This document shows positions 28,395 to 62,573 of a stretch of 64,000 nt of DNA, piece after piece. The stretch is from Flectonema sp. DT1601. Its lineage: Eukaryota. Every line of letters starts with the position of its first letter. Within the stretch, counting starts at the first letter, position 1. The position numbers and the translations under genes are program-made. The stretch lies in the NCBI GenBank assembly GCA_964019425.1, contig OZ025786.1, positions 930,001-994,000 on the forward strand, in the 5' to 3' direction. The notes under the pieces were generated by a model. That model made no database searches. It had not been told where the DNA came from and worked only from the letters and a program-made list of their open reading frames with translations.

Positions 28395-28986
28395 TGTAGG
28401 AGATGGATCTGAAAGGAGAAAAAAAACACATTGCAACAGGTTAAGTTACTGTAGTTTGACAGGGAACTTTGTAAGACATTTTTTAAGAACCTGGGGGGGG
28501 TAAATTAAGGAGGGGAAATTTGGATTTATGCAGTTTTGACACCTCTTACCTTATATCCTTGCTCTGTTCACAGATTTAGCTGCTAATATACCAAAAGACC
28601 CCAAAAAAACCCAAACAAGACTGGTTACTAGCTTTTTTAATTAAAAAAAATTTTTTTTACTCCCCTTCAAGTAATTTTTTTTTTTTTTTTTTACATTCTG
28701 AGAGAATAATTTTTTTTTCAAAAAATTCAAAAAAAATGCTTTCAGTGCCTACAGTGCCAGTTTCTCAATTTTCCACTGCTTTATTTTCAACAACTTTCCA
28801 TTTTTTTTCTAAAAAAATTCCAAAAAAATACCAAAAATGTCCAAAAATGAGGTATTTTTTGTTTGAAAATTTTTTTTCAAAAAAGCTAAAAAAAAGCTAA
28901 AAAAAGCTAAAAAAAGCTAAATAGCTTTAGCTTAGCTCTAAAAAGCTTAGCTTTAGCTTTAGCTTTTTGCACAAGTATGCTACTGG

Positions 28987-30080
28987 CGTTGCCACCCATT
29001 GGAATGCCTATTATTTGTCTCCAAATATAACCTCTTAATGCAATAAAGGAGGAGTCAATACAGAATTCAAGTAATTTTTGACATTCTGCAAGCGCAAGAG
29101 AAGGGAATCGTGTAGGGTCACTCGATTCAAGACGTAAGATATTTTTGAAACTAAAGGCTTCTTGCAGTGCTTCACTTACTTTAGTTTTAATAGCGTTGTG
29201 TGGTAGGCGGGTGTACATTGTTGTAAAATCAAAAGTCTTAGGGGATAATTTTTTCAAAACCATCAAATTCTGTTTAATCGAACTAGAGACTTCATCATCT
29301 GATTCCACAATCCAGTATCGTTTGAATCGCGAATGCATATCTTTCTCTTTTAATATAGTCATCGCATTTTTAAGGATACTAGAGAGATGTTGGTGCGCAT
29401 ATGTTGTTGCTGTTGCGGGTGCAAGATTATGATCCTTATCGTATTGTCGTTGTTCTGCTGTACTCGTGAAGGATGAGACCCCAGTAATCCATCTCATCCC
29501 GATAGCTGATTTGTGTAATTTAATCATTCCGTATAGGTGTGGGAGTCGATCAGAATGGCGGGCATTGATTGAAATGTTCATGTTCTTGAGGTTGGCTAGT
29601 CGTCTGATGTGATGCGTTCATAAGAATCACTTTGTAGCTGCTCTCGAAGTAAACGCAAATAGTTTAATTTACACATGTAACCAATATCGTGCTGTCCTTT
29701 GTCAACTTTAAGAAATACAAACTGAGATTGAAGATTCTGAAGTTCAGTCCATGCTTTATTTGATAATGGTGAGTCAAGAAAGCTTAAGTTTTTACTTAAT
29801 TTAAGCTGCAATTGTTTAAGAATTGTGTTTTTAAAGATCGATTTAAAGTTATCGCCAACGTTCTTGTATGCGTGAGTTATATATTCAGTAATATCATTTT
29901 CAAGTGATTCTAATGCAGCTGACGGGTGAACTGGGACTCTAAATTTTCGACCTCGTGCGAAGAAGTCTCTTAGTTCTTCTGAGACAGGTAAATCAGTAGC
30001 GAGTCCGCAAGAATGGTCGTTGTATTTTAAACTATTCAGTTCTTGAGTACTGCAATTGCAAGTAGATTGAGTCTTTTTTC
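28987..30080 (-). pseudogene. Penelope RT N-terminal half (frameshift near 29596)
   Basis: ORFs 29596-29811 and 28907-29581 plus the upstream open frame carry PLE motifs. Confidence 0.8.
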
Positions 30081-30191
30081 AAAGTACAGTCAGTAGTTGT
30101 AAGAAACCTCAGCATCCCTGCCATCACCAGTATTTCAACCTACCGCAAGGAGACAAATGGTAAACTATTTATAGCTACCTCGTCAGATGCT

Positions 30192-30644
30192 ATGGAACAG
30201 TACGAACTTAGCAGCACAAAATCTGAACACACCTTAGAGCACTCTCCGAAGATTTCCTCTAATCTACCCCTAACAAAGGATGAGAAAACAATTATTGGGG
30301 ATGCACAGTACCAACGTGATGCTGTTGATGAGGTGGAAGAGGTCGACCACAGCAAGCTCGTAAGGACGCTTCAAAACAAGAGGGAGAGAAAGGATCAGTT
30401 GTTTGTAAAACTCAAGAAAGACTATGAGAATAATAAAAAAATGTCAGTCACTCAAGCAAGTGAAACATGGGAACAAACATCCCCCACAACAATTAAGAAA
30501 AAAAGAAAGAAACGGACCTGTGGGACATGTGGGGCCCCAAATCACGATAGCAGGAATTGTCCTGACGGCAGCTCTTCCGAGAGTTCCACTCAGAGCTCTT
30601 GCGATCAGAATGTGAAACGTCCAAAGGAAACGCAAAAAAAGTAG
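30192..30644 (+). pseudogene. Zinc-knuckle fragment, probably a transposase C-terminus
   Basis: KKKRKKRTCGTCGAPNHDSRNCP (basic stretch plus CCHC), in a mobile-element context. Confidence 0.45.
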
Positions 30645-30687
30645 AACATGGGGTTTCTCTGTAGCCACAAGCAAGCCTGTGTAAGCC

Positions 30688-30857
30688 ACAAGCAAAAAAT
30701 GCAGGATTTTTTTTTTTTTACAAGTATTACAAGTAAAGTGAGATCCCACACCCGGAATTGAATTTTTTGGGGCATGTTTCAGACGGGGTTGGGTCTCGAT
30801 TGAGTTGTACATGCCCGCAGTTTACCGTTGACCAAAACGGTACCAGACTTTTGACAT
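30688..30857 (+). repeat. ~170-bp segment duplicated at 54965-55135
   Basis: acaagcaaaaaatgcagg...ccagacttttgacat is near-identical at both loci. Confidence 0.9.
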
Positions 30858-31039
30858 GTCCTCATATATTTAATAAAAAGAATTGGCTTTAACTTCAACT
30901 ATACAGAAAATAATGATATAACACCGTGATTTTTTTGTTTGTGCACGAAACCGTGAACCGACTTAAACTGATAAAGCTAAAGGAGGTTTACGTGTGCTGC
31001 CAACATTCTTTTTCGTTCTTACAATACTTGTTAAATGCA

Positions 31040-31292
31040 AAAAAAAATTAAAAAAAAGAATAAACAATGTTATCATAGTTTTTTTTATCGATTGACTATG
31101 TCGATTAATTTCTATTTTCCGTCCTGGTCAAGACGCTAAACTGATTGTTTTTTTTTTTTAAAAATTAATAAAAAGAATATAAAAAAAAAAGAATAAACAA
31201 TGTTACCATTGTTTTTTTTTTTTTTTTTTACCGATCGACTTTGTCGACTAATTTCTATTTTCCGTCCTGGTCAAGACGCTAAACTGATTGTT
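31040..31292 (-). repeat. Hairpin satellite A, two units, reverse orientation
   Basis: ccgtcctggtcaagacgctaaactgattg occurs twice. Confidence 0.9.
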
Positions 31293-31838
31293 TTGAAACG
31301 CGTTGTATGGGACTTCAAGTCTACGGACTGGAACTGCTTTGGGACCATGCTCGAAAAGAGAATTAGAAAATCAAGACTCTCCGATGATGCAACTGCGAAT
31401 GCCAAGCTCTTTAACAACATACTGCATGAAGTGGCGGCTAAATTCATTCGTCGACGTCTCCTTTTCAAAGGAAAACGGAGACGAAAGTGGAAGACGTCAA
31501 CTCCTGATTTTACCAAATCGAAGGGTGTCCACCTACGTGATCAACTTGACAAGGGTAACAACTTTGCCTTTGCGTTTAAGAAGATCAAAGAACTGCAGCA
31601 AGATGCTGGTAAAGATATCAGTGTCAACAACATCTCCGACTGCGATCTCCCATCAGCATTCTTGGACCTGTTTGTCTTGAAATCGGAAATATTATCGCTA
31701 GAGGCCCCCGCACTCTCAGAAGGTGATAATGAAATAGATATTTGCTGTGATTTCACAATGGCTGAAATTAAAGCTGCGATTAAGAACCTGAAGACCCGCA
31801 AGGCTGCAGGACCTGATGGACACAATGAGATCTCCTGA
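31293..31838 (+). pseudogene. Fragment of an APE-type non-LTR retrotransposon (Ingi/I/Jockey-like), endonuclease-RT linker
   Basis: WDFKSTDWNCF...FNNILHE...FTMAEIKAAIKNLKTRKAAGPDG (RT domain 0). Confidence 0.75.
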
Positions 31839-32254
31839 GAATTATTAACACTTCCTGGAAGACTTCAAAAGTACCTACCGTACCAGTGGAAATATTTAAT
31901 TTGTTACAAGAAAACAGGTAACCTTACATGAGCATCGGCTCGAACGGCTCTGGCGAAGCGAGTGAACGAGTCTGATTGCTGAGTATTGTATTCTGTTTTC
32001 TTGTTCTTTTTTTTAATTTATTTCAAACAGGGCAACAGGGCCACCTGTTGGTATCTTTTTATTTTTTTTATTTAAAGAAAAAAGCAGGCTAAGTCGCCTG
32101 AGCTGGCATCGCCAGAATATTTAACTTCACATGGCAATGTCAGCTCGTGAAGGGATCCAGTTGGATCAAAGGTTTTCTCCCCCCCACTCTATTTATCGTC
32201 ATTGGTGCGCACCTTTGAACAGGAAGGCCAACACTGACGGAATTTTTTTGTAGG

Positions 32255-32301
32255 GAGTTGGCGATTTCGCAAACTATTTTTGTTGAATTAGAGGTTTTCC
32301 C
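32255..32301 (+). repeat. Orphan Mutator TIR of the same family as 34929-51965
   Basis: Reverse complement of the TIR starting at 34929, followed by tttattttt and satellite A. Confidence 0.85.
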
Positions 32302-33250
32302 TTTATTTTTTAAAGAAAAAAAAACGGAAAATAAAAATTAGTCGACAAAGTCGAACGATAAAAAAAAACAATGATAACATTGTTTATTCTTTTTTTTTTT
32401 TGTTTTTTTTTTATATTCTTTTTTATTAATTTTGAAAAAAAAACAATCAGTTTAGCGTCTTGACCAGGACGGAAAATAGAAAGTAATCGACATAGTCAAT
32501 CGATAAAAAAACAATGATAACATTGTTTATTCTTTTTTTTTTAAATTCTTTTTATTTATTTTTTAAAGAAAAAAAAACGGAAAATAGAAATTAGTCGACA
32601 AAGTCGAACGATAAAAAAACAATGATAACATTGTTTATTCTTTTTTTTTTATTTTTTTATATTTTTTTTAATTAATTTTTAAAAAAAAAAAACACTCAGT
32701 TTAGCGTCTTGACCAGGACGGAAAATAGAAAGTGATCGACATAGTCGATCGATAAGAAAACAATGATAACATTGTTTATTCTTTTTTTTTATTTTAAATT
32801 CTTTTTATTTATTTTTTAAAGAAAAAAAACGGAAAATAGAAATTAGTCGACAAAGTCGAACGATAAAAAAAAACAATGAAAACATTGTTTATTCTTTTTT
32901 TTGTATTTTTTTTATATTCTTTTTTATTAATTTTGAAAAAAAAAAAACAATCAGTTTAGCGTCTTGACCAGGACGGAAAATAGAAAGTGATCGACATAGT
33001 CGATCGATAAAAAAACAATGATAATATTGTTTATTCTTTTTTTTTTTTTTTTTTTTTTAAATTCTTTTTATTTATTTTTTAAAGAAAAAAATGGAAAATA
33101 GAAAATAGTCAACAAAGTCGAACGATAAAAAAAAACAATGATAACATTGTTTATTCTATTTTTTTATTTTTTTTTTTTTCTATTCTTTTTTATTAATTTT
33201 GAAAAAAAAAAACAATCAGTTTAGCGTCTTGACCAGGACGGAAAATAGAA
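32302..33250 (+). repeat. Hairpin satellite A array
   Basis: Alternating long and short units with cagtttagcgtcttgaccaggacgg, gatcgacatagtcgatc and aacaatgataacattgtt. Confidence 0.95.
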
Positions 33251-33463
33251 ACTCATATTGATTTGACCTGCTATCCTCATATCCCCACAATAATATTATA
33301 CCTTTTCATTTTCTCTTTCCTTTTCTGGTCTTTTTTTTTTTTTTTTTCTTTTTTTTCCTTTTTCATACAACGTTTCTTATTTATATTTTATTTATTTTTT
33401 TTTTTTATTTGGGAAAAACTATAATTCCACAAAAAAGTTTCTGAAATGTCCGATCTCAACATG

Positions 33464-33578
33464 AAAGTTTCCGAAATGGACAGCTCCACACAAAAAAGTT
33501 TCCGAAATGGACAGCTCCACACAAAATAGTTTCCGAAATGGACAGCTCCACACACGAAAGTTTCCGAAATGGACAGCT
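33464..33578 (+). repeat. 27-bp subterminal tandem repeats of Mutator-like element 2 (inverse copy at ~56814-56926)
   Basis: agtttccgaaatggacagctccacac repeated about four times at each end, in opposite orientations. Confidence 0.9.
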
Positions 33579-34095
33579 GTTTTTTTTTTTTTTTATAGCT
33601 TACTGCCAGTGCATTTCGGGGTCGCCCAAAGTCATGGGGATTTTTTTTTCTCCCAAAAAAAATTTTTTTTCCTACATAAGGCAAGGCCATCCGACGAGAT
33701 GAGTGAAATACACCGAACCTGTGTGACCTGGGCCTAGGACTGACTGCGCCCCTGGATCGGCATAGCTCGGTATGTGCAGGGCCAGGTATAGGGATGGACG
33801 AATTTCGGGTAGAGACACTTGTCCCGACTTGTCAGCTCATACAACCATGAGAATTCAGAGTGTATTAAAATACTAGAGGTGCATCACAAGCGTCAGATAG
33901 GAGACAAGAATTCGATAGAGTGGGAAGTAACGGACTGGGAGCTTTTGGCTCCTGCCCTATTCCCGATGTAAACTTTCTTTTTATTTTTTTTTTTTTAACA
34001 GGCCCAGAGGGCGACAATGACTGTTGCTGACCAAGGAATAATATTCAAATGAATTTTCGTTTCAAAGAAACGAACAGAATTAAGAGAGAGGCAGA

Positions 34096-34129
<34 letters not shown>

Positions 34130-34450
34130 AAAAAAAAAAAAATATGAAGAGGAAATAATCAAACATGAAAAAAATAAAAAAAAAAATAAAATATAAATAA
34201 AAAACGTTGTATGAAAAAGGAAAAAAAAGAAGAAAAAAAAAAAAGACCAGAAAAGGAAAGAGAAAATGAAAAGGTATAATATTATTGTGGGGATATGAGG
34301 ATAGCAGGGAGATGCTCTTTTTTTTTTTTTTTTTTTACTTATTATTTAAAAAAAAGGAAACAATCAGTTTAGCGTCTCGATCGGGACGGAAAATAGAAAT
34401 TAATCGACATAGTCGATCGATAGAAAAAAAAACAATGATAACATTGTTTA

Positions 34451-34485
<35 letters not shown>

Positions 34486-35160
34486 CTTTTAATTATTTTA
34501 AAGAAAAAACAATATTCTTTTTTATTAATTTTGAAAAAAAAAACAATCAGTTTAGCGTCTTGACCAGGACGGAAAATAGAAAGTGATCGACATAGTCGAT
34601 CGATAAAAAAACAATGATAACATTGTTTATTCTTTTTTTTTTTTTTTTAAATTCTTATTATTTATTTTTTAAACAAAAAAAAACGGAAAATAAAAATTAG
34701 TCGACAAAGTCGAACGATAAAAAAAAACAATGATAACATTGTTTATTCTTTTTTTTTTTGTTTTTTTTTTATATTCTTTTTTATTAATTTTGAAAAAAAA
34801 AACAATCAGTTTAGCGTCTTGACCAGGACGGAAAATAGAAAGTAATCGACATAGTCGATCGATAAAAAAACAATGATAACATTGTTTAATCTTTTTTTTT
34901 TTTTTTTAAATTCTTTTTATTTATTTTTGGGAAAACCTCTAATTCAACAAAAATAGTTTGCGAAATCGCCAACTCCCTACAAAAAAAAGTTATCCACCAG
35001 GACTCGAACTTGACCCGAAAAATTGACCATCGGCCGAAATATTAGGGAAAAAAGTTACCGCACCGGGACTCGAACTTGACAGATTTAAAAAAAAAAAAAA
35101 ATTCTTAATTTTTATTACAAAGTTTTTTTGTTGCAGCTTTCCACAAAAAAAAATTAAAAG

Positions 35161-35822
35161 ATGCCTGCTACTACTTATGCTGTTGGAGACTACTTCCGCA
35201 CACAGGAAGAACTGATCCAGACTGTGTTTCGGGTGAACACTGTGCTAGGACACAGCTGCAGGGTGCAGAGAAGGTGCCCCACGTACCTCACCCTCGCCTG
35301 TCCAAACGACGAATGCCAATGGACGGTGAAGGCAAAGGTGGTGGAGGGGGAGTGCCGCGTGACGAAGGTGGAGAGTCACACTTGCGCACCTGGGGAAGCG
35401 AGGCGGGGCTGCGATGGCACGTCGGACTGGATTTCCAGTATTTTGGAAGAGAAGGTAGCCAGTCAGTTTGACTACGGGCCGAAACAAGCGGCAATTGACT
35501 TAAAGTCATTCCGCGACGTTGCGGTCCCCAAAAAGACTGTGGAGAGGGGTCTGGAGAAGGCCAAGGAGAAGGTCCACGGGTTGATGGGCGAGCAGTACGG
35601 CCTGATAGCACCGTACCTCACCGACCTCCAACAGCGCAACAGCCAGATGTACTGGAACATCGAGAAGAGAGATGATGGTGCTTTTGAGAGGGTGTTTTGG
35701 TCTTTTGTGAGGCCAGAAACAGCTGAGCACCTGGCACCTGTCATCTGCAGCGATGCATGCAGTCTGACGGGTCCGTTTGGTGGGTGCTTGTTCATCACCG
35801 TGGGGATCGACGCCGAAAGGGT
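35161..35822 (+). pseudogene. MuDR transposase, 5' part
   Basis: Zn DNA-binding region (CPNDECQW...HTC) and the first catalytic Asp (CSDAC...GIDAE), cut by the insertion at 35823. Confidence 0.9.
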
Positions 35823-36280
35823 GAATTTCGAAAAGGTGGGAAGTAACGGACTGGGAGCTTTTGGCTCCTGCCCTATTCCCGATGTAAACTTTCTTTTTAT
35901 TTTTTTTTTTTTTTTTAACAGGCCCAAAGGGCGACAATGATGGTTGCTGACCAAGGAATAATATTCAAATGAATTTTCGTTTCAAAGAAACGAACAGAAT
36001 TAAGAGAGAGGTAGAGAAAAAAAAAAAAAAAAAAAAAAAAAAAAGAAAGAATAGAAAAAAAATATGAAGAGGAAATAATCAAACATGAAAAAAAAAAAAA
36101 AAAAATAAAATATAAATAAAAAACGTTGTATGAAAAAGGAAAAAAAGAAAAAAAAAAGACCAGAAAAGGAAAGAGAAAATGAAAAGGTATAATATTATTG
36201 TGGGGATATGAGGATAGCAGGGAGATGCTCTTTTTTTTTTTTTTTTTTTCTTTTTTTTTTTATTTATTATTTAAAAAAAG

Positions 36281-37088
36281 AAACAATCAGTTTAGCGTCT
36301 CGATCAGGACGGAAAATAGAAATTAATCGACATAGTCGATCGATAGAAAAAAAACAATGATAACATTGTTTATTCCTTTTTTTTTTTTTTTTTTTTTTAT
36401 TCTTTTTATTTATTTTTAAAGAAAAAACAATCAGTTTAGCGTCCTGACCAGGACGGAAAATTGAAAGTGATCGACATAGTCGATCGATAGAAAAAAAACA
36501 ATGATAACATTGTTTATTCCTTTTTTTTTTTTTTTTTTTTTTATTCTTTTTATTTATTTTTAAAGAAAAAACAATCAGTTTAGCGTCCTGACCAGGACGG
36601 AAAATTGAAAGTGATCGACATAGTCGATCGATAGAAAAAAAACAATGATAACATTGTTTATTCCTTTTTTTTTTTTTTTTTTTTTTATTCTTTTTATTTA
36701 TTTTTAAAGAAAAAACAATCAGTTTAGCGTCCTGACCAGGACGGAAAATTGAAAGTGATCGACATAGTCGATCGATAGAAAAAAAACAATGATAACATTG
36801 TTTATTCTTTTTTTTTTTTTTTTTTTTTTTAAATCCTTTTAATTATTTTAAAGAAAAACAATCAGTTTAGCGTCTTGACCAGGGCGGAAAATAGAAAGTA
36901 ATCGACATAGTCGATCGATAAAAAAAAAACAATGATAACATTGTTTATTCCTTTTTTTTTTTTTTTTTTTTTATTCTTTTTATTTATTTTTAAAGAAAAA
37001 ACAATCAGTTTAGCGTCCTGACCAGGACGGAAAATTGAAAGTGATCGACATAGTCGATCGATAAAAAAACAATGATAACATTGTTTAT

Positions 37089-37125
<37 letters not shown>

Positions 37126-37902
37126 CTTTTAATTATTTTTTAAAGAAAAAACAATCAGTTTAGCGTCTTGACCAGGACGGAAAATAGAAAGTGATCGACA
37201 TAGTCGATCGATAAAAAACAATGATAACATTGTTTATTCTTTTTTTTTTTTTTTTTTTTTTTTTTAATCCTTTTTATTATTTTAAAGAAAAAACAATCAG
37301 TTTAGCGTCTTGACCAGGACGGAAAATAGAAAGTGATCGACATAGTCGATCGATAAAAAAACAATGATAACATTGTTTATTCTTTTTTTTTTTTTTTTTT
37401 TAAATTCTTTTTATTTATTTTTAAAGAAAAAAAAACGGAAAATAAAAATTAGTCGACAAAGTCGAACGATAAAAAAAAAACAATGATAACATTGTTTATT
37501 CTTTTTTTTTTTGTTTTTTTTTATTCTTTTTTATTAATTTTGAAAAAAAAAACAATCAGTTTAGCGTCTTGACTAGGACGGAAAATAGAAAGTAATCGAC
37601 ATAGTCGATCGATAAAAAAAAACAATGATAACATTGTTTACTCTTTTTTTTTTTTTTTTTTTAAATTCTTTTTATTTTAAAAAGAAAAAAAACGGAAAAT
37701 AGAAATTAGTCGACAAAGTCGAACGATAAAAAAAAAACAATGATAACATTGTTTATTCTTTTTTTTTTATTTTTTTTTTTTATATTCTTTTTTATTAATT
37801 TTGAAAAAAAAACAATCAGTTTAGCGTCTTGACCAGGACGGAAAATAGAAAGTGATCGACATAGTCGATCGATAAAAAAAAACAATGATAACATTGTTTA
37901 TT

Positions 37903-37936
<34 letters not shown>

Positions 37937-38305
37937 CTTTTTTTTTTTTAAAGAAAAAACAATCAGTTTAGCGTCTTGACCAGGACGGAAAATAGAAAGT
38001 AATCGACATAGTCGATCGATAAAAAAAACAATGATAACATTGTTTATTCTTTTTTTTTTTTTTTAAATCTTTTTATTTATTTTTTAAAAAGAAAAAAAAA
38101 AAACGGAAACTAGAAATTAGTCAACAACGTCGAACGATAAAAAAAAACAATGATAACATTGTTTATTCTTTTTTTTTTATTTTTTTTTGTATTCTTTTTT
38201 ATTAATTTTGAAAAAAAACAATCAGTTTTGCGTCTTGACCAGGACGGAAAATAGAAAGTGATCGACATAGTCGATCGATAAAAAAACAATGATAACATTG
38301 TTTAT

Positions 38306-38343
<38 letters not shown>

Positions 38344-39047
38344 CTTTTTATTATTTTTAAAGAAAAAACAATCAGTTTAGCGTCTTGACCAGGACGAAAA
38401 ATAGAAAGTGATCGACATAGTCGATCGATAAAATAAAACAATGATAACATTGTTTATTCTTTTTTTTTTTTTTTTTTTTTTTTTAAATCCTTTTTATTAT
38501 TTTTAAAGAAAAAACAATCAGTTTAGCGTCTTGACCAGGACGAAAAATAGAAAGTGATCGACATAGTCGATCGATAAAAAAACAATGATAACATTGTTTA
38601 TTCTTTTTTTTTTTTTTTTTTATTTTAAATCCTTCTTTTTATTTTTTAAACCTTTTAATTATTTTTTAAAGAAAAAACAATCAGTTTAGCGTCTTGACCA
38701 GGACGGAAAATAGAAAGTAATCGACATAGTCGATCGATAAAATAAAAACAATGATAACATTGTTTATTCCTTTTTTTTTTTTTTTTATTCTTTTTATTTA
38801 TTTTTAAAGAAAAAACAATCAGTTTAGCGTCCTGACCAGGACGGGAAATAGAAAGTGATCGACATAGTCGATCGATAAAAAAACAATGATAACATTGTTT
38901 ATTCTTTTTTTTTTTTTTTTTTTTTTTTTTAATTCTTTTTATTTATTTTTTAAAGAAAAAACATCAGTTTAGCGTCTTGACCAGGACGGAAAATAGAAAT
39001 TAGTCGACAAAGTCGATCGATAACAAAACAATGATAACATTGTTTAT

Positions 39048-39078
<31 letters not shown>

Positions 39079-39860
39079 CTTTTTATTTATTTTTTAAAGA
39101 AAAAACAATCAGTTTAGCGTCCTGACCAGGACGGAAAATAGAAAGTAATCGACATAGTCGATCGATAAAAAAAACAATGATAACATTGTTTAATCTTTTT
39201 TTTCTTTTTTTTTTTTTTATTCTTTTTATTTATTTAGAAAAAACAATCAGTTTAGCGTCTTGACCAGGACGGAAAATAGAAATTAGTCGACAAAGTCGAT
39301 CGATAAAAAAACAATGATAACATTGTTTATTCTTTTTTTTTTTTTTTTTTTTTAAATTCTTTTTATTTATTTTTTAAGAAAAAAAAACGGAAAATAGAAA
39401 TTAGTCGACAAAGTCGAACGATAAAAAAACAATGATAACATTGTTTATTCTTTTTTTTATTTTTTTTTTTTATTCTTTTTTATTAATTTTGAAAAAAAAA
39501 AAAAACCAATCAGTTTAGCGTCTTGACCAGGACGGAAAATAGAAAGTAATCGACATAGTCGATCGATAAAAAAACAATGATAACATTGTTTATTCTTTTT
39601 TTTTTTTTTTTTTTAAATTCTTTTTATTTATTTTTTAAGAAGAAAAACGGAAAATAGAAATTAGTCGACAAAGTCGAACGATAAAAAAACAATGATAACA
39701 TTGTTTATTCTTTTTTTTATTTTTTTTTTTATATTCTTTTTTATTAATTTTGAAAAAAAAAAAAAAAACAATCAGTTTAGCGTCTTGACCAGGACGGAAA
39801 ATAGAAAGTAATCGACATAGTCGATCGATAAAAATACAATGATAACATTGTTTAATCTTT
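36281..39860 (+). repeat. Hairpin satellite A array (~90-130-bp units)
   Basis: Three conserved palindromes per unit, separated by variable T and A tracts. Confidence 0.95.
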
Positions 39861-40100
39861 TATAATTTTTTATTTTTTTTTTTGTTTTAAAAAAAAAAAA
39901 AAAAAACAAGCGGAATTGATCATAATGGGTGGTAGGGGTTGTTATAACTTCGTTTGAAAATTCTTCTTTTTTGATTTCTTTTTTTTTTTCTTTTTACAGG
40001 AGTTAAGATCACTTTCAGGAGACAACACATTAACAAGAGCAGCAAGCAGAGTTGACACTATCAATTCAAATTTGAAATACCGGGAATTAATTTACAAGGA

Positions 40101-40195
40101 GGTATCTCAAGTGACTTGGTATCTCTAGCGTGTCGGTATCTCTGGAGTGCTGGTATCTCGTATGTGCGTTGGTATCTCATGAGTGATGGTATCTC
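40101..40195 (-). repeat. Six GAGATACC motifs at 17-19-nt spacing (also 46457-46551, 61211-61305, 63412-63506)
   Basis: ggtatctc occurs six times with differing spacers. Confidence 0.9.
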
Positions 40196-40523
40196 TTGTG
40201 CATTAGAGAAACGAAAAAGAATGTCATGACCATGACGGAAGAATTGAGGAATTGAGTTAACATGTTCAATTTAACTTATTTAAACTTTTTTTTTTTTTTT
40301 TTAACAGACCGTAACTATTTGAAAATAAAATGTAGATGGGAAACAGTGAAAAGTAAAATGGATGATAAAATTAAATGAGAAATATGACATAACAGACCAG
40401 ATAGAGAGTATTAAAAGGAAATTGAAAAGGAAAAGAGAAACTAGGTTAACACTTATTTAAAATTAAGACCGGTTAGTCAGTTTAAGGTCTTGACTAGGAC
40501 CAACAAAAAAGAAAGAAAAAAAA

Positions 40524-41360
40524 ATTAACGATCAAGCTGAGCTGATCTTGTTTTTATTACAAATAGGGGAGCGGGAGGGATGGAAGGAATAGAGGAAAAA
40601 AAAAGAAAAGGTTGATCAATTGGATCTGATCGTCGAGAAGAAGAAATTATTTTAAAGGTTGATCGGTATAGCCGATCGTTGAGAAAAATAAACAGATATA
40701 AATACAATCAGTTTAAATTAAAAAAAGAAAAAAAGATTAACGATCAAGCTGAGCTGATCTTGTTTTTATTACAAATAGGGGAGCGGGAGGGATGGAAGGA
40801 ATAGAGGAAAAAAAAAGAAAAGGTTGATCAATTGGATCTGATCGTCGAGAAGAAGAAATTATTTTAAAGGTTGATCGGTATAGCCGATCGTTGAGAAAAA
40901 TAAACAGATATAAATACAATCAGTTTAAATTAAAAAAAGAAAAAAAGATTAACGATCAAGCTGAGCTGATCTTGTTTTTATTACAAATAGGGGAGCGGGA
41001 GGGATGGAAGGAATAGAGGAAAAAAAAAAGAAAAGGTTGATCAATTGGATCTGATCGTCGAGAAGAAGAAATTATTTTAAAGGTTGATCGGTATAGCCGA
41101 TCGTCGAGAAAAATAAACAGATATAAATACAATCAGTTTAAATTAAAAAAAGAAAAAAAGATTAACGATCAAGCTGAGCTGATCTTGTTTTTATTTAAAA
41201 TTAGGGGAGCGGGAGGGATGGAAGGAATAAAGGAAAAAAAAAAAAAAAAAAAGGTCGATCAATTGGATCTGATCGTCGAGAAGAAGAAAACAATTATTTA
41301 TAAAAAAAAATGGTCGGTATAGCCGATCGTTGAGAAAAGAACAGATATAAATACAATCGG
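40524..41360 (+). repeat. 212-bp repeat B, four copies (three at ~46880-47505, two at ~60470-60885, two at ~62700-63120)
   Basis: Identical 60-aa ORFs 212 nt apart. Each unit has GATC-closed hairpins. Confidence 0.92.
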
Positions 41361-41855
41361 TTTTGGTGATCGACGAGTGGAGCGATCACTTGACAAGAAG
41401 GAAAAAGAAAGGACCGATTAATTGGGGCTTTGATTGTATTCCCAAGGCATGTTTTTTTTTTTTTTTTTTTATTATTCATTTACATTATTATTTTTTTTTT
41501 TTTTTTTAAATTAATAATCACATTTTGTTCAAAAATATTTCATATTAGAGTAAAAGAAAAAGAAAAAAAGAAATAAGAGAAAAAAAAAAAAAAAAAAAAA
41601 CCATTGCTGGCCCCCTCACCACTCATAGAGGATGAGGAGGCCAGTAAGGCGTCACTCAAATCTATGCCAAGCCTTGGGAACTTGGATTAGGGTTTAGACC
41701 ATTTATAATTAACAATTAACAATTAACCTGATTAACGTTATGATCTGACGGACATAAACATATCGATAAAATAATACAAACAAAAACGAACAATAAATAA
41801 TAAATAAGCTAAAAAACTAAATAAACAAAGTGATGTGAAAGTAAGGAAAAGAGAA

Positions 41856-43154
41856 TTACAAGGGGGTGGAGTCACCGTGAACGTCATCAGCAGAACATCT
41901 CCTTCGATTGTAACGATATCTTGATGGAGGGGTTCGTTTTTTCAGAGTTGAACGCTCAGACTTTCTCGGCGGAGTTTCATTTTCCTCATGTTCTTCTGTG
42001 TCTGGCGGACTCAAACCTTCTGCCCATGAAGCTAATTGGAACTTCAGGGCCGCAATTTGAGACCGTGCCAAGGCGAGTTGAGCATTTAAATCGCTCGCCA
42101 GTCCCGTTAACATCATGGATTGCTCAAGCTGCTCTGCGTGAGTTGTACACCGTTGGTGATTCAGCTCCGAGAGGCGAAGTTGGGCATCCAGAAGTTGTTC
42201 TGAGAGCTCTGCCGCTTTCTCGTTTGTTTCGAGAGAGTCATCTACTGCTCGACAGTAATTCTCGAGTAAGTCAATCCTACCCTCGGACCATTGTCTCGCA
42301 ATAGGTGTATTCTCTTTAACGGAGATAACGTGACTCTCTTGTCGTAAAATCTTGGTCGGCGTGCGGTCGAGAGCTTCACTCTGCGGCATTGTCGGAGGAA
42401 TTGAGGCTAGAGGACAAAGAGGGGTGATATAATTAAGGGTAGGGATAAGGGGTTTAATAAGAGGAGTAAAAAGACTACTCGTAGTTGTAAAGAGCGAGAG
42501 GTAGTTCTTTGCTATCTTCATCATAGCAACAGATTCATATAGAACGGGGGTTCGGGGGGAAACTTGTTGACTAAAGTGGGTCATACGGGGACGCGCGGCA
42601 CGCAAACTCTCGACCTCCTGTTGAGTATAGAAAAGTCTTATTTTACTTTCTCTTTCCTCATTACATTTGGTCTCCAATTCGTTCGACAGAAGAACAAACC
42701 TTTGATGGTAATTAAAGAGCGCCATTTCCGATAGGTCTGCTCTCTGAGTCAGATTTGCGAGCTCACGTTTCCTGTAATCTTCCACTAAGTCATATTGTCG
42801 AACTAGTGCAGAAAGAGAAGTCTTCGATTCATCGCGTTCTGCTGTTAACCGTTGAATTACTCCTTCCAGAAGTTCATATTCTTTTCTATCTTTTTCAATA
42901 ATTAAAACAGGGGGCGCAGGAGGAAGTGAGGATGGATCCTGGTTGGTAGCTTTGATCTCAACAGGTAATCCATTTAGTAACTGCTTGTCTTTCTCGAGGG
43001 AGGCTGACATCGCATTAAAGTAAAATAAAAATAGAACATAAAAAATTCGTTCTTTCATTTGCTCTAATTCGTTTTCTAAAATCTGGCATTTCAAGGAAAG
43101 TTTCAGCCTTAATTTTCCTTCTTTTTTTTTGTACAAGGGGGTTTGAGAACCCAT
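41856..43154 (-). CDS. Element-encoded coiled-coil protein of unknown function, copy 1
   Basis: The 432 aa from MGSQ are identical in three copies despite DNA differences. The ORF-track extension to 43331 crosses the unit junction. Confidence 0.75.
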   Translation of the reverse strand: MGSQTPLYKKKEGKLRLKLSLKCQILENELEQMKERIFYVLFLFYFNAMSASLEKDKQLLNGLPVEIKATNQDPSSLPPAPPVLIIEKDRKEYELLEGVIQRLTAERDESKTSLSALVRQYDLVEDYRKRELANLTQRADLSEMALFNYHQRFVLLSNELETKCNEERESKIRLFYTQQEVESLRAARPRMTHFSQQVSPRTPVLYESVAMMKIAKNYLSLFTTTSSLFTPLIKPLIPTLNYITPLCPLASIPPTMPQSEALDRTPTKILRQESHVISVKENTPIARQWSEGRIDLLENYCRAVDDSLETNEKAAELSEQLLDAQLRLSELNHQRCTTHAEQLEQSMMLTGLASDLNAQLALARSQIAALKFQLASWAEGLSPPDTEEHEENETPPRKSERSTLKKRTPPSRYRYNRRRCSADDVHGDSTPL

Positions 43155-43614
43155 GTCAGATTGAGTTCTTATCACTATAGCGAAATCAGCAGGAAGTGTT
43201 TGCGATCCCGTTGAGGCTGAATTTCGATAAGTGGGAAGTAACGGACTGGGAGCTTTTGGCTCCTGCCCTATTCCCGACGTAAACTTTCTTTTTATTTTTT
43301 TTTTTTTTTTAACAGGCCCAAAGGGCGACAATGATGGTTGCTGACCAAGGAATAATATTCAAATGAATTTTCGTTTCAAAGAAACGAACAGAATTAAGAG
43401 AGAGGTAGAGAAAAAAAAAAAAAAAAAAAAAAAGAAAGAATAGAAAAAAAATATGAAGAGGAAATAATCAAACATGAAAAAAAAAAAAAAAAATAAAATA
43501 TAAATAAAAAACGTTGTATGAAAAAGGAAAAAAAGAAAAAAAAAAGACCAGAAAAGGAAAGAGAAAATGAAAAGGTATAATATTATTGTGGGGATATGAG
43601 GATAGCAGGGAGAT

Positions 43615-43652
<38 letters not shown>

Positions 43653-43670
43653 TTATTATTTAAAAAAAGG

Positions 43671-43905
43671 AAACAATCAGTTTAGCGTCTCGATCAGGAC
43701 GGAAAATAGAAATTAATCGACATAGTCGATCGATAGAAAAAAAACAATGATAACATTGTTTATTCCTTTTTTTTTTTTTTTTTTTTATTCTTTTTATTTA
43801 TTTTTAAAGAAAAAACAATCAGTTTAGCGTCCTGACCAGGACGGAAAATTGAAAGTGATCCACATAGTCGATCGATAGAAAAAAGACAATGATAACATTG
43901 TTTAT

Positions 43906-43938
<33 letters not shown>

Positions 43939-44330
43939 CTTTTAATTATTTTAAAGAAAAAACAATCAGTTTAGCGTCTTGACCAGGACGGAAAATAGAA
44001 AGTGATCGACATAGTCGATCGATAAAAAACAATGATAACATTGTTTATTCCTTTTTTTTTTCTTTTTTTTTTATTCTTTTTATTTATTTTTAAAGAAAAA
44101 ACAATCAGTTTAGCGTCCTGACCAGGACGGAAAATAGAAAGTAATCGACATAGTCGATCGATAAAAAAAAAACAATGATAACATTGTTTATTCCTTTTTT
44201 TTTTCTTTTTTTTTATTCTTTTTATTTATTTTTAAAGAAAAAACAATCAGTTTAGCGTCCTGACCAGGACGGAAAATTGAAAGTGATCGACATAGTCGAT
44301 CGATAAAAAAACAATGATAACATTGTTTAT

Positions 44331-44361
<31 letters not shown>

Positions 44362-45135
44362 CCTTTTAATTATTTTTTAAAGAAAAAACAATCAGTTTAG
44401 CGTCTTGACCAGGACGGAAAATAGAAAGTGATCGACATAGTCGATCGATAAAAAACAATGATAACATTGTTTATTCTTTTTTTTTTTTTTTTTTTTTTTT
44501 AATCCTTTTTATTATTTTAAAGAAAAAACAATCAGTTTAGCGTCTTGACCAGGACGGAAAATAGAAAGTGATCGACATAGTCGATCGATAAAAAAACAAT
44601 GATAACATTGTTTATTCTTTTTTTTTTTTTTTTTTTAAATTCTTTTTATTTATTTTTAAAGAAAAAAAACGGAAAATAAAAATTAGTCGACAAAGTCGAA
44701 CGATAAAAAAAAACAATGATAACATTGTTTATTCTTTTTTTTTTTGTTTTTTTTTATATTCTTTTTTATTAATTTTGAAAAAAAAACAATCAGTTTAGCG
44801 TCTTGACCAGGACGGAAAATAGAAAGTAATCGACATAGTCGATCGATAAAAAAAACAATGATAACATTGTTTACTCTTTTTTTTTTTTTTTTTTAAATTC
44901 TTTTTATTTTAAAAAGAAAAAAAACGGAAAATAGAAATTAGTCAACAAAGTCGAACGATAAAAAAAAAAACAATGATAACATTGTTTATTCTTTTTTTTT
45001 TATTTTTTTTTTTATATTCTTTTTTATTAATTTTGAAAAAAAAAACAATCAGTTTAGCGTCTTGACCAGGACGGAAAATAGAAAGTGATCGACATAGTCG
45101 ATCGATAAAAAAAAAACAATGATAACATTGTTTAT

Positions 45136-45172
<37 letters not shown>

Positions 45173-46215
45173 CTTTTTTTTTTTTTAAAGAAAAAACAAT
45201 CAGTTTAGCGTCTTGACCAGGACGGAAAATAGAAAGTAATCGACATAGTCGATCGATAAAAAAAACAATGATAACATTGTTTATTCTTTTTTTTTTTTTT
45301 TTTAAATCTTTTTATTTATTTTTTAAAAAGAAAAAAAAAAACGGAAAATAGAAATTAGTCAACAACGTCGAACGATAAAAAAAAAAACAATGATAACATT
45401 GTTTATTCTTTTTTTTTTTATTTTTTTTTGTATTCTTTTTTATTAATTTTGAAAAAAAAACAATCAGTTTTGCGTCTTGACCAGGACGGAAAATAGAAAG
45501 TGATCGACATAGTCGATCGATAAAAAAACAATGATAACATTGTTTATTCTTTTTTTTTTTTTTTTTTTTTTTAAATCCTTTTTATTATTTTTAAAGAAAA
45601 AACAATCAGTTTAGCGTCTTGACCAGGACGAAAAATAGAAAGTGATCGACATAGTCGATCGATAAAAAAACAATGATAACATTGTTTATTCTTTTTTTTT
45701 TTTTTCTTCTTTTTTTTAAATCCTTCTTTTTATTTTTTAAAGAAAAAACAATCAGTTTAGCGTCTTGACCAGGACGGAAAATAGAAAGTAATCGACATAG
45801 TCGATCGATAAAATAAAAACAATGATAACATTGTTTATTCCTTTTTTTTTTTTTTTTATTCTTTTTATTTATTTTTAAAGAAAAAAACGGAAAATAGAAA
45901 GTAATCGACATAGTCGATCGATAAAAAAACAATGATAACATTGTTTATTCCTTTTTTTTTTTTTTTTTTTTTAAATTCTTTTTATTTATTTTTTAAGAAA
46001 AAAACGGAGAATAGAAATTAGTCGACAAAGTCGAACGATAAAAAAACAATGATAACATTGTTTATTCTTTTTTTTATTTTTTTTTTTATATTCTTTTTTA
46101 TTAATTTTGAAAAAAAAAAAAAAACAATCAGTTTAGCGTCTTGACCAGGACGGAAAATAGAAAGTAATCGACATAGTCGATCGATAAAAATACAATGATA
46201 ACATTGTTTAATCTT
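43671..46215 (+). repeat. Hairpin satellite A array
   Basis: Same variant order as in unit 1, with fewer units. Confidence 0.95.
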
Positions 46216-47999
46216 TTATAATTTTTTATTTTTTTTTTTGTTTTAAAAAAAAAAAAAAAAAACAAGCGGAATTGATCATAATGGGTGGTAGGGGTTGTTA
46301 TAACTTCGTTTGAAAATTCTTCTTTTTTGATTTCTTTTTTTTTTTCTTTTTACAGGAGTTAAGATCACTTTCAGGAGACAACACATTAACAAGAGCAGCA
46401 AGCAGAGTTGACACTATCAATTCAAATTTGAAATACCGGGAATTAATTTACAAGGAGGTATCTCAAGTGACTTGGTATCTCTAGCGTGTCGGTATCTCTG
46501 GAGTGCTGGTATCTCGTATGTGCGTTGGTATCTCATGAGTGATGGTATCTCTTGTGCATTAGAGAAACGAAAAAGAATGTCATGACCATGACGGAAGAAT
46601 TGAGGAATTGAGTTAACATGTTCAATTTAACTTATTTAAACTTTTTTTTTTTTTTTAACAGACCGTAACTATTTGAAAATAAAATGTAGATGGGAAACAG
46701 TGAAAAGTAAAATGGATGATAAAATTAAATGAGAAATATGACATAACAGACCAGATAGAGAGTATTAAAAGGAAATTGAAAAGGAAAAGAGAAACTAGGT
46801 TAACACTTATTTAAAATTAAGACCGGTTAGTCAGTTTAAGGTCTTGACTAGGACCAACAAAAAAGAAAGAAAAAAAAATTTAACGATCAAGCTGAGCTGA
46901 TCTTGTTTTTATTACAAATAGGGGAGCGGGAGGGATGGAAGGAATAGAGGAAAAAAAAAAGAAAAGGTTGATCAATTGGATCTGATCGTCGAGAAGAGGA
47001 AATTTTTTTAAAGGTTGATCGGTATAGCCGATCGTTGAGAAAAATAAACAGATATAAATACAATCAGTTTAAATTAAAAAAAGAAAAAAAGATTAACGAT
47101 CAAGCTGAGCTGATCTTGTTTTTATTACAAATAGGGGAGCGGGAGGGATGGAAGGAATAGAGGAAAAAAAAAGAAAAGGTTGATCAATTGGATCTGATCG
47201 TCGAGAAGAAGAAATTATTTTAAAGGTTGATCGGTATAGCCGATCGTCGAGAAAAATAAACAGATATAAATACAATCAGTTTAAATTAAAAAAAGAAAAA
47301 AAGATTAACGATCAAGCTGAGCTGATCTTGTTTTTATTTAAAATTAGGGGAGCGGGAGGGATGGAAGGAATAAAGGAAAAAAAAAAAAAAAAAAGGTCGA
47401 TCAATTGGATCTGATCGTCGAGAAGAAGAAAACAATTATTTATAAAAAAAAATGGTCGGTATAGCCGATCGTTGAGAAAAGAACAGATATAAATACAATC
47501 GGTTTTGGTGATCGACGAGTGGAGCGATCACTTGACAAGAAGGAAAAAGAAAGGACCGATTAATTGGGGCTTTGATTGTATTCCCAAGGCATGTTTTTTT
47601 TTTTTTTTTTTTTATTATTCATTTACATTATTATTTTTTTTTTTTTTTTTTAAATTAATAATCACATTTTGTTCAAAAATATTTCATATTAGAGTAAAAG
47701 AAAAAGAAAAAAAGAAATAAGAGAAAAAAAAAAAAAAAAAAAACCATTGCTGGCCCCCTCACCACTCATAGAGGATGAGGAGGCCAGTAAGGCGTCACTC
47801 AAATCTATGCCAAGCCTTGGGAACTTGGATTGGGGTTTAGACCATTTATAATTAACAATTAACAATTAACCTGATTAACGTTATGATCTGACGGACATAA
47901 ACATATCGATAAAATAATACAAACAAAAACGAACAATAAATAATAAATAAGCTAAAAAACTAACTAAACAAAGTGATGTGAAAGTAAGGAAAAAGAGAA

Positions 48000-50240
48000 T
48001 TACAAGGGGGTGGAGTCACCGTGAACGTCATCAGCAGAACATCTCCTTCGATTGTAACGATATCTTGATGGAGGGGTTCGTTTTTTCAGAGTTGAACGCT
48101 CAGACTTTCTCGGCGGAGTTTCATTTTCCTCATGTTCTTCTGTGTCTGGCGGACTCAAACCTTCTGCCCATGAAGCTAATTGGAACTTCAGGGCCGCAAT
48201 TTGAGACCGTGCCAAGGCGAGTTGAGCATTTAAATCGCTCGCCAGTCCCGTTAACATCATGGATTGCTCAAGCTGCTCTGCGTGAGTTGTACACCGTTGG
48301 TGATTCAGCTCCGAGAGGCGAAGTTGGGCATCCAGAAGTTGTTCTGAGAGCTCTGCCGCTTTCTCGTTTGTTTCGAGAGAGTCATCTACTGCTCGACAGT
48401 AGTTCTCGAGTAAGTCAATCCTACCCTCGGACCATTGTCTCGCAATAGGTGTATTCTCTTTAACGGAGATAACGTGACTCTCTTGTCGTAAAATCTTGGT
48501 CGGCGTGCGGTCGAGAGCTTCACTCTGCGGCATTGTCGGAGGAATTGAGGCTAGAGGACAAAGAGGGGTGATATAATTAAGGGTAGGGATAAGGGGTTTA
48601 ATAAGAGGAGTAAAAAGACTACTCGTAGTTGTAAAGAGCGAGAGGTAGTTCTTTGCTATCTTCATCATAGCAACAGATTCATACAGAACGGGGGTTCGGG
48701 GGGAAACTTGTTGACTAAAGTGGGTCATACGGGGACGCGCGGCACGCAAACTCTCGACCTCCTGTTGAGTATAGAAAAGTCTTATTTTACTTTCTCTTTC
48801 CTCATTACATTTGGTCTCCAATTCGTTCGACAGAAGAACAAACCTTTGATGGTAATTAAAGAGCGCCATTTCCGATAGGTCTGCTCTCTGAGTCAGATTT
48901 GCGAGCTCACGTTTCCTGTAATCTTCCACTAAGTCATATTGTCGAACTAGTGCAGAAAGAGAAGTCTTCGATTCATCGCGTTCTGCTGTTAACCGTTGAA
49001 TTACTCCTTCCAGAAGTTCATATTCTTTTCTATCTTTTTCAATAATTAAAACAGGGGGCGCAGGAGGAAGTGAGGATGGATCCTGGTTGGTAGCTTTGAT
49101 CTCAACAGGTAATCCATTTAGTAACTGCTTGTCTTTCTCGAGGGAGGCTGACATCGCATTAAAGTAAAATAAAAATAGAACATAAAAAATTCGTTCTTTC
49201 ATTTGCTCTAATTCGTTTTCTAAAATCTGGCATTTCAAGGAAAGTTTCAGCCTTAATTTTCCTTCTTTTTTTTTGTACAAGGGGGTTTGAGAACCCATGT
49301 CAGATTGAGTTCTTATCACTATAGCGAAATCAGCAGGAAGTGTTTGCGATCCCGTTGACATGAGTTCAGGTGGGGGAGTCTGGAAAGAGATGGAAGAAAT
49401 AGAAGAGAATGACAAGGAGAGTCCAGTGAGCTCATCCTCATCTAACAAAACAGAAGGGGCCGGGGAGGAAGAACCATTGGCAATAAGTAGAATAGAAAGA
49501 GCCGATGCGTAACAAGTTTGCCAGATAAAACATTTCTCAAGCCACGATCTTTCAATGGTGAGCTTTTCGATCGTTTTCAGTTTTGTTACTTTGTGGATTT
49601 TGACTTCTTCCACAGGGAAGATTTCTTTACCATCTTTTATAAAACTTGCAGTGGCAGGTTCTTCTTTAATGCTGCGCATTAGTGGTCTTGAATGCCACGT
49701 GGGGAGGTTCCTCGTCTGGAACAGAACATATGAGCACTGTCTGGCGATTCTGGTGCATTCACAAAATAAAGCTTTTGTTGGTGCTAAAGGTGAACCGATG
49801 TGACGTGTCCAGATGTTCAGCTGGTCCATGCAGATGTTTCCTCGTACGCCAACTTCAATAGTAAAAATGTTACAGTCGAAGCCATTAGCGATGATCGAGT
49901 CTCTTAGCTTTAGGTATTTCTTTTCCTTTAAGACATGAGAGGTTTCGAAACGATCTTCATTTGGACACGTCAGCTCCAGAATCAGTGCTCTTTTCGCAAA
50001 AAAAGAATAAATAAAAATGTCTGGTCTTAGAGAGGACGAGACATGGCACACTTCAAGAGGAACAATTAGGCGGTTATCACCGACATCGTCGAGGATGACC
50101 CAATCATTCGCTAGTGAAAGTTCGCCTGTCTCTTTAGAAATTCTTTCTAGGGGTTTATTTTCCCCTGTTTTTAAAAAAGTTTGAGAGGGAGGCGGGAGGT
50201 TTTCTTTTCTTTTGTTGGCTTTTATTATCAACTCTTCCAA
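48000..50240 (-). CDS. 5'-truncated ORF: HERO-like restriction-like endonuclease domain in frame with the coiled-coil protein
   Basis: LANDWVILDD...LRPDIFI...ILELTCPNE...KEKKY..L...IEVGVRG...SYVLFQTR..W matches the RLE of non-LTR retrotransposons. No stop occurs before the coiled-coil region. Confidence 0.8.
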   Translation of the reverse strand: MEELIIKANKRKENLPPPSQTFLKTGENKPLERISKETGELSLANDWVILDDVGDNRLIVPLEVCHVSSSLRPDIFIYSFFAKRALILELTCPNEDRFETSHVLKEKKYLKLRDSIIANGFDCNIFTIEVGVRGNICMDQLNIWTRHIGSPLAPTKALFCECTRIARQCSYVLFQTRNLPTWHSRPLMRSIKEEPATASFIKDGKEIFPVEEVKIHKVTKLKTIEKLTIERSWLEKCFIWQTCYASALSILLIANGSSSPAPSVLLDEDELTGLSLSFSSISSISFQTPPPELMSTGSQTLPADFAIVIRTQSDMGSQTPLYKKKEGKLRLKLSLKCQILENELEQMKERIFYVLFLFYFNAMSASLEKDKQLLNGLPVEIKATNQDPSSLPPAPPVLIIEKDRKEYELLEGVIQRLTAERDESKTSLSALVRQYDLVEDYRKRELANLTQRADLSEMALFNYHQRFVLLSNELETKCNEERESKIRLFYTQQEVESLRAARPRMTHFSQQVSPRTPVLYESVAMMKIAKNYLSLFTTTSSLFTPLIKPLIPTLNYITPLCPLASIPPTMPQSEALDRTPTKILRQESHVISVKENTPIARQWSEGRIDLLENYCRAVDDSLETNEKAAELSEQLLDAQLRLSELNHQRCTTHAEQLEQSMMLTGLASDLNAQLALARSQIAALKFQLASWAEGLSPPDTEEHEENETPPRKSERSTLKKRTPPSRYRYNRRRCSADDVHGDSTPL

Positions 50241-50335
50241 GAAGATAACAATGCGTTTTAGAGTTCAATGAGTTCAGGTGGGGGAGTCTGGAAAGAGATG
50301 GAAGAAATAGAAGAGAATGACAAGGAGAGTCCAGT

Positions 50336-51620: not shown

Positions 51621-51782
51621 CTTACTGGCCACTGACTTGTTCAACAATGTTTATCCCTCTCTAAAAAGAAAACTCTGATTGCCATATGCATGTGTTTTGA
51701 CACTTTTGCCACGTCTGGTCTTATTTTGAATTGCCTTTGTCACGCTCTCTTTTTCCATCAGGTTTTGGGTAAAAAAAAAAAA

Positions 51783-55202: not shown

Positions 55203-55234
<32 letters not shown>

Positions 55235-57023: not shown

Positions 57024-57054
<31 letters not shown>

Positions 57055-62541: not shown

Positions 62542-62573
<32 letters not shown>

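Follow-up and report, generated by a model that had tools for sequence, protein, structure and literature searches.

Proteins of the R2 group of retrotransposons without long terminal repeats (non-LTR retrotransposons) are under development for gene insertion, and their recognition of the 3′ untranslated region (UTR) sets the choice of template. Members of this group (R2, HERO, NeSL/Utopia, R4, CRE) have just one open reading frame (ORF), with reverse transcriptase (RT), CCHC knuckle and restriction-like endonuclease, and their copies are truncated at the 5′ end. One study reports that the R2 polymerase jumps between templates and that 5′ junctions show microhomologies and extra bases (PMC2718515); another ascribes a restriction-like endonuclease to HERO elements (PMC9004415). 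Here we describe an element of this kind from Flectonema sp. DT1601, located in a window of 64,000 nucleotides (contig OZ025786.1, positions 930,001 to 994,000 of the forward strand; all coordinates below count from the first letter of this whole stretch). Positions 36281-41360 of the window hold two families of tandem repeats, A and B, and are, on the minus strand, the predicted 3′ untranslated tail of an R2-group (restriction-like endonuclease) non-LTR retrotransposon. A and B are likely passenger tandem repeats in this tail, which extends over 5-6 kb downstream of the element's single ORF; we hold this reading with moderate confidence. As tandem repeats inside a retrotransposon they are ordinary in kind; the build of the element is unusual.

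The element, its ORF and its ends

Read on the minus strand, the element has the order ORF-B-U-A-T, with U a unique spacer and T the terminal module. On the ORF, a CCHC knuckle (CVLC..H..TGC) is followed by RPD, ELTCP..K..KY and EVGVRG, in that order. The RT domain lies outside the window and is known through matching longer proteins, a search for which recovered P0003 and P0005. The latter contains RVT_1 (E-value (E) 2e-26) and zf-RVT according to Pfam, matches window positions 50264-49728 at 98%, and has R2 proteins as its best PDB relatives (E 4e-32). As in the R2 group, the ORF encodes a non-LTR RT with the CCHC knuckle and then the restriction-like endonuclease C-terminal to it, and the copies have a common 3′ end and variable 5′ truncation, without LTRs or terminal inverted repeats (TIRs). 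In that group the endonuclease lies near the ORF end, whereas about 560 extra residues follow here. Judged by its sequence, the element works like and belongs to the R2 group; it is not R2 proper. The R2 clade proper was rejected, as the flanks consist of MULE, DIRS-like and other repeat DNA and no rRNA match was found in 30000-50000. In a tree of 27 RT cores (no named HERO reference included), the element stood among unnamed relatives with ELTVP/EVGxRG endonucleases; the ELTxP/EVGxRG endonuclease motif is presumably HERO-like.

The initial annotation, made by a model from the letters and a list of open reading frames, had suggested a multivalent protein-binding scaffold on RNA or ssDNA, perhaps for the coiled-coil protein. 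A separate gene for that protein was rejected, because the frame is continuous with the endonuclease: the predicted protein is the C-terminal ~560 residues, and thus the tail, of the single RT-zinc knuckle-endonuclease ORF. Protein clusters of 47, 235, 14 and 1 sequences were obtained, and 46 proteins (45 listed cluster members) were taken into the comparison. Four of these (P0024, P0028, P0031, P0032) align with the complete window ORF at 97-100% and reach farther upstream, into the RT region, and at least five further proteins join the endonuclease to the tail of a second subfamily. The same join of endonuclease and extension occurs in contigs of sequencing runs X1, X2 and X5, three of the four runs compared. 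Many cluster members (P0005, P0008, P0025, P0028, P0030, P0034, P0040 and P0045) are chimeric, with the ORF joined to sequence of T or of A in either orientation; such a number of chimeras suggests that copies often insert into or recombine with one another.

The ORF continues for 612 residues past EVGxRG, compared with a median of 55 in 36 related loci (76 metagenome loci, with the endonuclease motif found in 37 and a stop codon in 36 of those). Only two of the 36 have a C-terminal tail of more than 120 residues, both with an unrelated UCH protease domain. In these two, L018:21-2561 and L027:11-5740, an in-frame ubiquitin-specific protease (Pfam UCH, E 6e-35 and 2e-29) follows the restriction-like endonuclease; our literature search found no paper on a UCH protease fused to such a retrotransposon ORF. 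In the DNA downstream of the 76 loci, the sole match was a weak one at L049 (E 0.003), and no common motifs were seen.

Searching 1.84 billion representatives with the extension gave 15 matches, eight of which were at least 90% identical to the query; the seven checked further all fell within one of the two subfamilies. Between the subfamilies, the nonsynonymous and synonymous differences over 219 codons were pN 0.30 and pS 0.68. The corresponding ratio of substitution rates (dN/dS) of about 0.2, with dS near saturation, indicates that the extension is real coding sequence under purifying selection. P0031 and P0010, one from each subfamily, are near-identical through the endonuclease and about 50% identical in the extension, pointing to an exchange of the C-terminal module between subfamilies. 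AlphaFold predicted four long helices for the extension at low confidence (mean predicted local distance difference test score 46), for which Foldseek found no match in the PDB at E 0.001. Pfam assigned no family to the coiled-coil frames, and a query of the ESM Atlas with the last 266 residues was uninformative, leading to unnamed clusters (0.90-0.92) of low recognition.

By self-comparison of the window, a T-A-U-B-C module, in which C is on the minus strand the end of the 754-codon frame (50264-48000), lies head to tail at 35818-43214 and 43215-50267, and recurs on the opposite strand at 58676-61374, with a diverged subfamily from ~61386. In the window, the end points of six T modules lie no more than about 5 nt apart, and the five flanks next to them are unrelated; two of the six ends have 5 further bases in common. 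A contig of run X1 supplies one more T-end flank. The 5′ ends are varied (43214, 50267, 54957, 58583, 58676, about 61386). No target duplication was found at the three insertions with both junctions visible (33908/54957, 35818/50335, 58383/58583). Copies 1 and 2 lie head to tail and split the transposase gene of a MULE that is itself inserted in an older copy's A array. Helitron/Helentron, Penelope/Terminon and DIRS termini were rejected as identities of the T module, given that the linked ORF encodes RT and restriction-like endonuclease.

Copy 1 starts at the same ORF point (49358-49360; window 43214 and 50268) at which an extra 68-bp piece ends, which would fit one insertion with two template jumps. 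The 68-bp piece and copy 1 look as though they were two halves of one broken RNA in a single insertion. Also, T ends are joined to inverted A or U sequence at 33251-33267 and 55421-55480, resembling the 5′ inversions of twin priming.

Arrays A and B and their hairpins

A recheck of the sequence found the motifs and coordinates of the initial annotation to be real; its term "satellite" for A did not hold, since the arrays are part of a retrotransposon 3′ UTR and no free long satellite was seen in the window. Of seven A-array settings, five adjoin T or U, one is the continuation of an array past the MULE, and one is a two-unit fragment, and independent satellite DNA was rejected on these grounds. 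Identity between copies 1 and 2 amounts to 99.65-99.85% in U and in the coiled-coil DNA, yet they contain 26 and 19 A units and 4 and 3 B units, respectively, and their 3′ UTRs measure 6038 bp and 4785 bp. Unit numbers hence change much faster than the flanking DNA, and the likeness of the units reflects recent duplication.

Among the 26 A units of copy 1, 21 are long, with a lead motif and hairpins 1, 2 and 3 (H1, H2, H3), and five are short, with a variant of H2 plus H3 and neither lead nor H1. The statement that each A unit has three palindromes therefore applies to 21 units and fails for the five short ones; H2 and H3 are present in all 26, with H2 imperfect in 15. Within 36281-41360, the exact H1 string cgtcttgaccaggacg occurs in 12 units and a C variant with a perfect stem in six more, the exact H2 string gatcgacatagtcgatc in 11 units and the exact H3 string aaacaatgataacattgttt in 25. 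As the 2-nt loop drawn for H1 is unable to form, its stem has 6 bp and its loop 4 nt. The A unit core of 91 nt contains three hairpins with stems of 7 bp or more, a number that none of 2000 dinucleotide shuffles reached, and it folds with a z of about -3.9 on both strands alike.

The B array comprises four units (40508-41363), and gatcggtatagccgatc and tacaatcagttt are present in three of them; the fourth carries variants. By strict hairpin count a B unit is unexceptional, as 654 of 2000 shuffles reach it. The solo variant with a swapped outer pair, reported at about 40486, is real: ggtcttgactaggacc at 40486-40501 is lead plus H1 heading the first B unit, to which it belongs. A further H1 copy with a compensatory pair, at 40222-40237, had been overlooked. 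That A and B are related was borne out, with shared motifs beyond chance: a common 12-mer arises in 1 of 400 shuffles, and 7 of 400 yield a common 19-mer when up to 3 mismatches are allowed. Derivation of both from one ancestral lead-plus-hairpin module is supported. Between these arrays, U contains a 50-nt block (40313-40363) that is also found in contigs of runs X1-X4; these contigs belong to another sequence family and diverge beyond the block.

Covariation was assessed on 56 H1, 82 H2 and 84 H3 copies from seven arrays, with each distinct pair change counted once. The 15 single stem changes kept pairing in seven cases on the plus and six on the minus strand, against 27-39% under neutrality; this excess is not significant (P 0.09-0.36 and 0.20-0.57, respectively). 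Two distinct double changes were seen, one compensatory (in 1 copy) and one pair-breaking (in 27 of 82 H2 copies); just 24 of the 82 H2 copies have a completely paired stem. The excess of pair-preserving changes over a neutral model, on which the initial annotation had staked its proposal, is thus absent within the A arrays (7 of 15). Its broader idea that structure rather than sequence is conserved fails for the arrays as well, their sequence being near-invariant through recent duplication and common variants breaking H2. What stands of the compensatory changes are a few between diverged versions of the motif. Contigs of the sequencing runs, aligned to A, U and B, left the A units and the solo hairpin uncovered and so added no covariation data.

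Readings of the repeats

Taking A and B as passengers, one ancestral lead-plus-hairpin module would have been copied into both arrays, which would then travel with the element each time reverse transcription proceeds from its 3′ end. Insertion probably proceeds by target-primed reverse transcription starting at T, the tandem copies and the extra 68-bp piece may stem from template jumps, and units may be gained and lost by slippage or recombination at the A/T tracts. The compensatory pairs could come from template-switch mutation or from past selection on a single ancestral module, not on a multivalent array. Passenger behaviour is seen in the lack of lead and H1 in 5 of the 26 units. According to PMC8794818, template switching can create or repair stems in a single event, so that the compensatory pairs do not prove selection.

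Several observations weigh against this reading. A compensatory pair is found in four of five diverged motif versions identified by sequence scan (solo, 40222 copy, first-unit variant, B hairpin, short-unit H2), with a rough P of 4e-5 to 2e-4 that is post hoc, assumes independent point mutation and ignores CpG hot spots. H1 retains a G-U pair in 47 of the 56 copies from the arrays, and the solo hairpin of both subfamilies does so too, although palindrome-perfecting mutation would tend to erase it. The non-redundant tail contains 11 hairpins; 100 shuffles averaged 3.1 and never exceeded 8. Outside the A/T tracts, most of A and B shows 90-98% identity from one subfamily to the other, compared with a 68% synonymous-site difference in the adjacent ORF; recombination between the subfamilies, whose RT-endonuclease parts are near-identical, can explain this likeness. 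Finally, a copy complete to its 5′ end was not observed at the DNA level in the window. A scaffold function of the repeats is unsupported, and a role of RNA folding is possible from the few paired changes.

Folding was compared between strands. For five of the named hairpins the plus (antisense) strand gives the clearly better fold, and for another five the strands are about equal; the T-end hairpin folds slightly better on the sense strand. Plus/minus folding energies are -7.6/-4.5 for H1, -6.8/-4.6 for the solo hairpin, -9.7/-8.5 for the second B hairpin (B-H2), -11.9/-3.8 for the terminal B-H2 and -12.8/-8.6 for the B end. All pairs of H1 form in 54 of 56 copies when read on the plus strand and in 9 of 56 when read on the minus strand. 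This antisense preference where strands differ weakens a scaffold on the element's own RNA, and if folding matters, the antisense strand is the better candidate.

It is conceivable, and in our judgement unlikely, that each lead-hairpin-U-tract unit is a functional module of the antisense strand, with the lead as a start or processing signal of structured RNAs or of a regulatory antisense transcript, and with stems maintained by selection on plus-strand RNA. Besides the folding energies and the pairing of H1, the G-U pairs in H1, the solo hairpin, B-H2 and the terminal B hairpin suit the plus strand. The lead, which we take to resemble a TCAGTT initiator, stands before a hairpin in the A units, at the solo and at the B end; positions 1-30900 of the window do not contain its 9-mer. 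Three stretches with an upstream GT, a pyrimidine tract and ACAG on the plus strand of the tail (35883-35921, 39933-39999, 40258-40307) look like short introns or splice acceptors. On the other hand, an unbiased enumeration of hairpins gave two G-U pairs on each strand, B has more G than C on its plus strand (G 0.24, C 0.09), a composition that favours G-U there, and the commonest H2 change (56 of 82 copies) breaks a plus-strand pair. An Rfam scan of 30000-50000 found no family, its five matches with E up to 1 all lying far below gathering scores. A hammerhead array was rejected, no CUGANGA core being visible by eye before the stem-GAAA. Viral and metagenome contigs, when scanned for the motifs, gave 0 matches. 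A sigma-70 promoter scan gave 10 sites against 8.4 expected, and a terminator scan 2 against 0.7, with bacterial models unsuited to a eukaryote. The wider proposal that the element gained both a lineage-specific coiled-coil tail and a multi-kb lead-hairpin-U-tract array kept as folded RNA, most plausibly antisense, as a regulatory array of tunable copy number, seems to us similarly improbable.

A multivalent scaffold on the element's minus-strand RNA, which would gather the element protein through coiled-coil oligomerisation and thereby improve cis-preference and priming, we consider very unlikely. R2 protein binds the 3′ UTR and positions the RNA 3′ end, as stated in the accessible part of PMC13580325, the extension under purifying selection is predicted to form long helices, and two fragments stop just past the lead (31294 and the P0028 junction), as if array positions served as 3′ ends. 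However, 47 of the 56 H1 copies contain a C-A mismatch when read on the minus strand, a complete H2 stem forms there in only 1 of 82, most insertions begin at T, 0.4 kb beyond the array, and units are free to vary in number and make-up. Equally unlikely in our view is that the palindromes are bound as double-stranded DNA by a dimeric protein of the host or the element (as promoter, insulator or silencing signal), with symmetry due to two-fold binding and not to folding. In favour are regularly spaced GATC and TCGA palindromes in the cores and equal folding of H2, H3 and the U copy on both strands; against it, a swap of both halves alters the recognised bases themselves, H1, H2 and H3 are unrelated in sequence, and specific tolerance of a lasting T-G asymmetry would be unexpected.

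If the hairpin modules were functional, they would represent an unusual element-encoded RNA array; if not, they provide a clear case of compensatory-looking change within a neutral tandem repeat.

Features of the window and comparison with known systems

Host genes, which by their content may be those of a euglenozoan protist, occupy about 1-23000 of the window, and the remainder is a transposon nest (Table 1). Three MULE insertions (32243-32301, 33411-56980, 34929-51965) all lie in T-rich tracts of the element tail; the MULE ending at 32301 is without a left TIR in the window. Frames at 23880-30078 (minus strand) show GIPMG and YIDD motifs, which we take as marks of a Penelope-like RT; Pfam gave no match there. 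These frames are split by a hAT element with a BED finger (~25200-28900), and a hAT fragment occurs again at ~55815-56356. DIRS-like RT (Pfam RVT_1) and RNase H frames lie at 57197-58700 (plus strand), with element ends at 57247, 58383-58583 and 58676.

Table 1. Features of the transposon nest, in window coordinates.
Feature	Position	Strand	Remarks
Terminal module T, copy 1	35818-36280	-	Element 3′ end at ~35820, common to six window copies
A array, copy 1	36283-39880	-	26 units of ~115-145 bp with variable-length T/A tracts between
Spacer U of 3′ UTR, unique	39910-40480	-	Short GGTATCTC repeats at 40101-40196; diverged H1 copy at 40222-40237
Lead variant and solo H1, outer pair swapped	40474-40501	.	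Same hairpin in both subfamilies
B array	40508-41389	-	Four 212-bp units and terminal hairpin 41366-41389
Copy 1, 3′ part of ORF	41856-43214	-	Coiled-coil extension only; 5′-truncated at 43214
Copy 2, 3′ UTR	43215-47999	-	T, 19 A units, U, 3 B units
754-codon open frame, 3′ end of the element's single ORF	48000-50264	-	Predicted restriction-like endonuclease (RPD..ELTCP..KKY..EVGVRG), then in-frame coiled-coil extension
Extra 68-bp copy of ORF segment 49360-49427	50268-50335	-	At 5′ junction; ends in short MULE-target match
MULE transposon	34929-51965	+	TIRs at 34929 and 51965; 9-bp duplication TTTATTTTT; inside A array of older copy
MULE transposase	35158-35820 and 50336-51620	+	Interrupted by copies 1 and 2
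Older copy	33908-54957	-	T 33908-34340; A array 34340-34928 and 51966-54957; 5′-truncated within array
Copy 3	58676-61374	+	Coiled-coil part, two B units, part of U; broken by subfamily-2 copy
Subfamily-2 copy	61386-64000	+	Diverged coiled-coil part, B, U, start of A array
Lone T end, 5′-truncated	58383-58583	-	Inside DIRS-like RNase H frame; without target duplication
Further lone T ends	55142-55431; 33267-33410 and 56981-57247 (plus strand)		Besides the one at 58383-58583
Two-unit A fragment	31039-31294	+	Stops just past lead motif
Additional A array	32302-33251		Besides the fragment at 31039-31294

We found no description of such an element in the literature; Repbase and most subscription journals lay outside the scope of this search, so that a prior description is possible. 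For Diplonema, R2-like, SLACS, TATE, MULE and Helitron ORFs are named without detail in the available text of PMC10161547.

Arrays inside mobile elements have parallels. TE-born satellite DNA (derived from transposable elements) likewise consists of homogenised tandem units of variable number inside a mobile element, whereas here the arrays stay embedded between ORF and 3′ end. The fungal telomeric FoTeR/MoTeR elements, as presented in the accessible part of PMC12857005, are likewise non-LTR elements with variable-number tandem repeats in their UTRs. Their repeats are short, mostly 5′ of the ORF and telomeric, with a 3′ UTR of 336-409 bp; the units described here measure 115-212 bp, bear hairpins and lie 3′ of the ORF in an interstitial nest.

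BLAG elements resemble ours in having an R2-like single ORF, non-site-specific insertion and a different 3′ flank for each copy, and differ in the short UTRs described for them (PMC7650587). According to the same source, 3′ UTRs measure 132-241 bp in BLAG and 600 bp in cockroach R2, against 4.8-6.0 kb here. The UCH-fused relatives suggest that the C-terminus is a recurrent site for accessory domains. Compared with the R2 group as a whole, the element differs in its extension of 612 residues past EVGxRG and in that no fixed target was seen here. It has amplified recently, is not site-specific and combines a tail of 5-6 kb with a coiled-coil extension fused to its ORF, and so shows how far the R2-group architecture can stretch.

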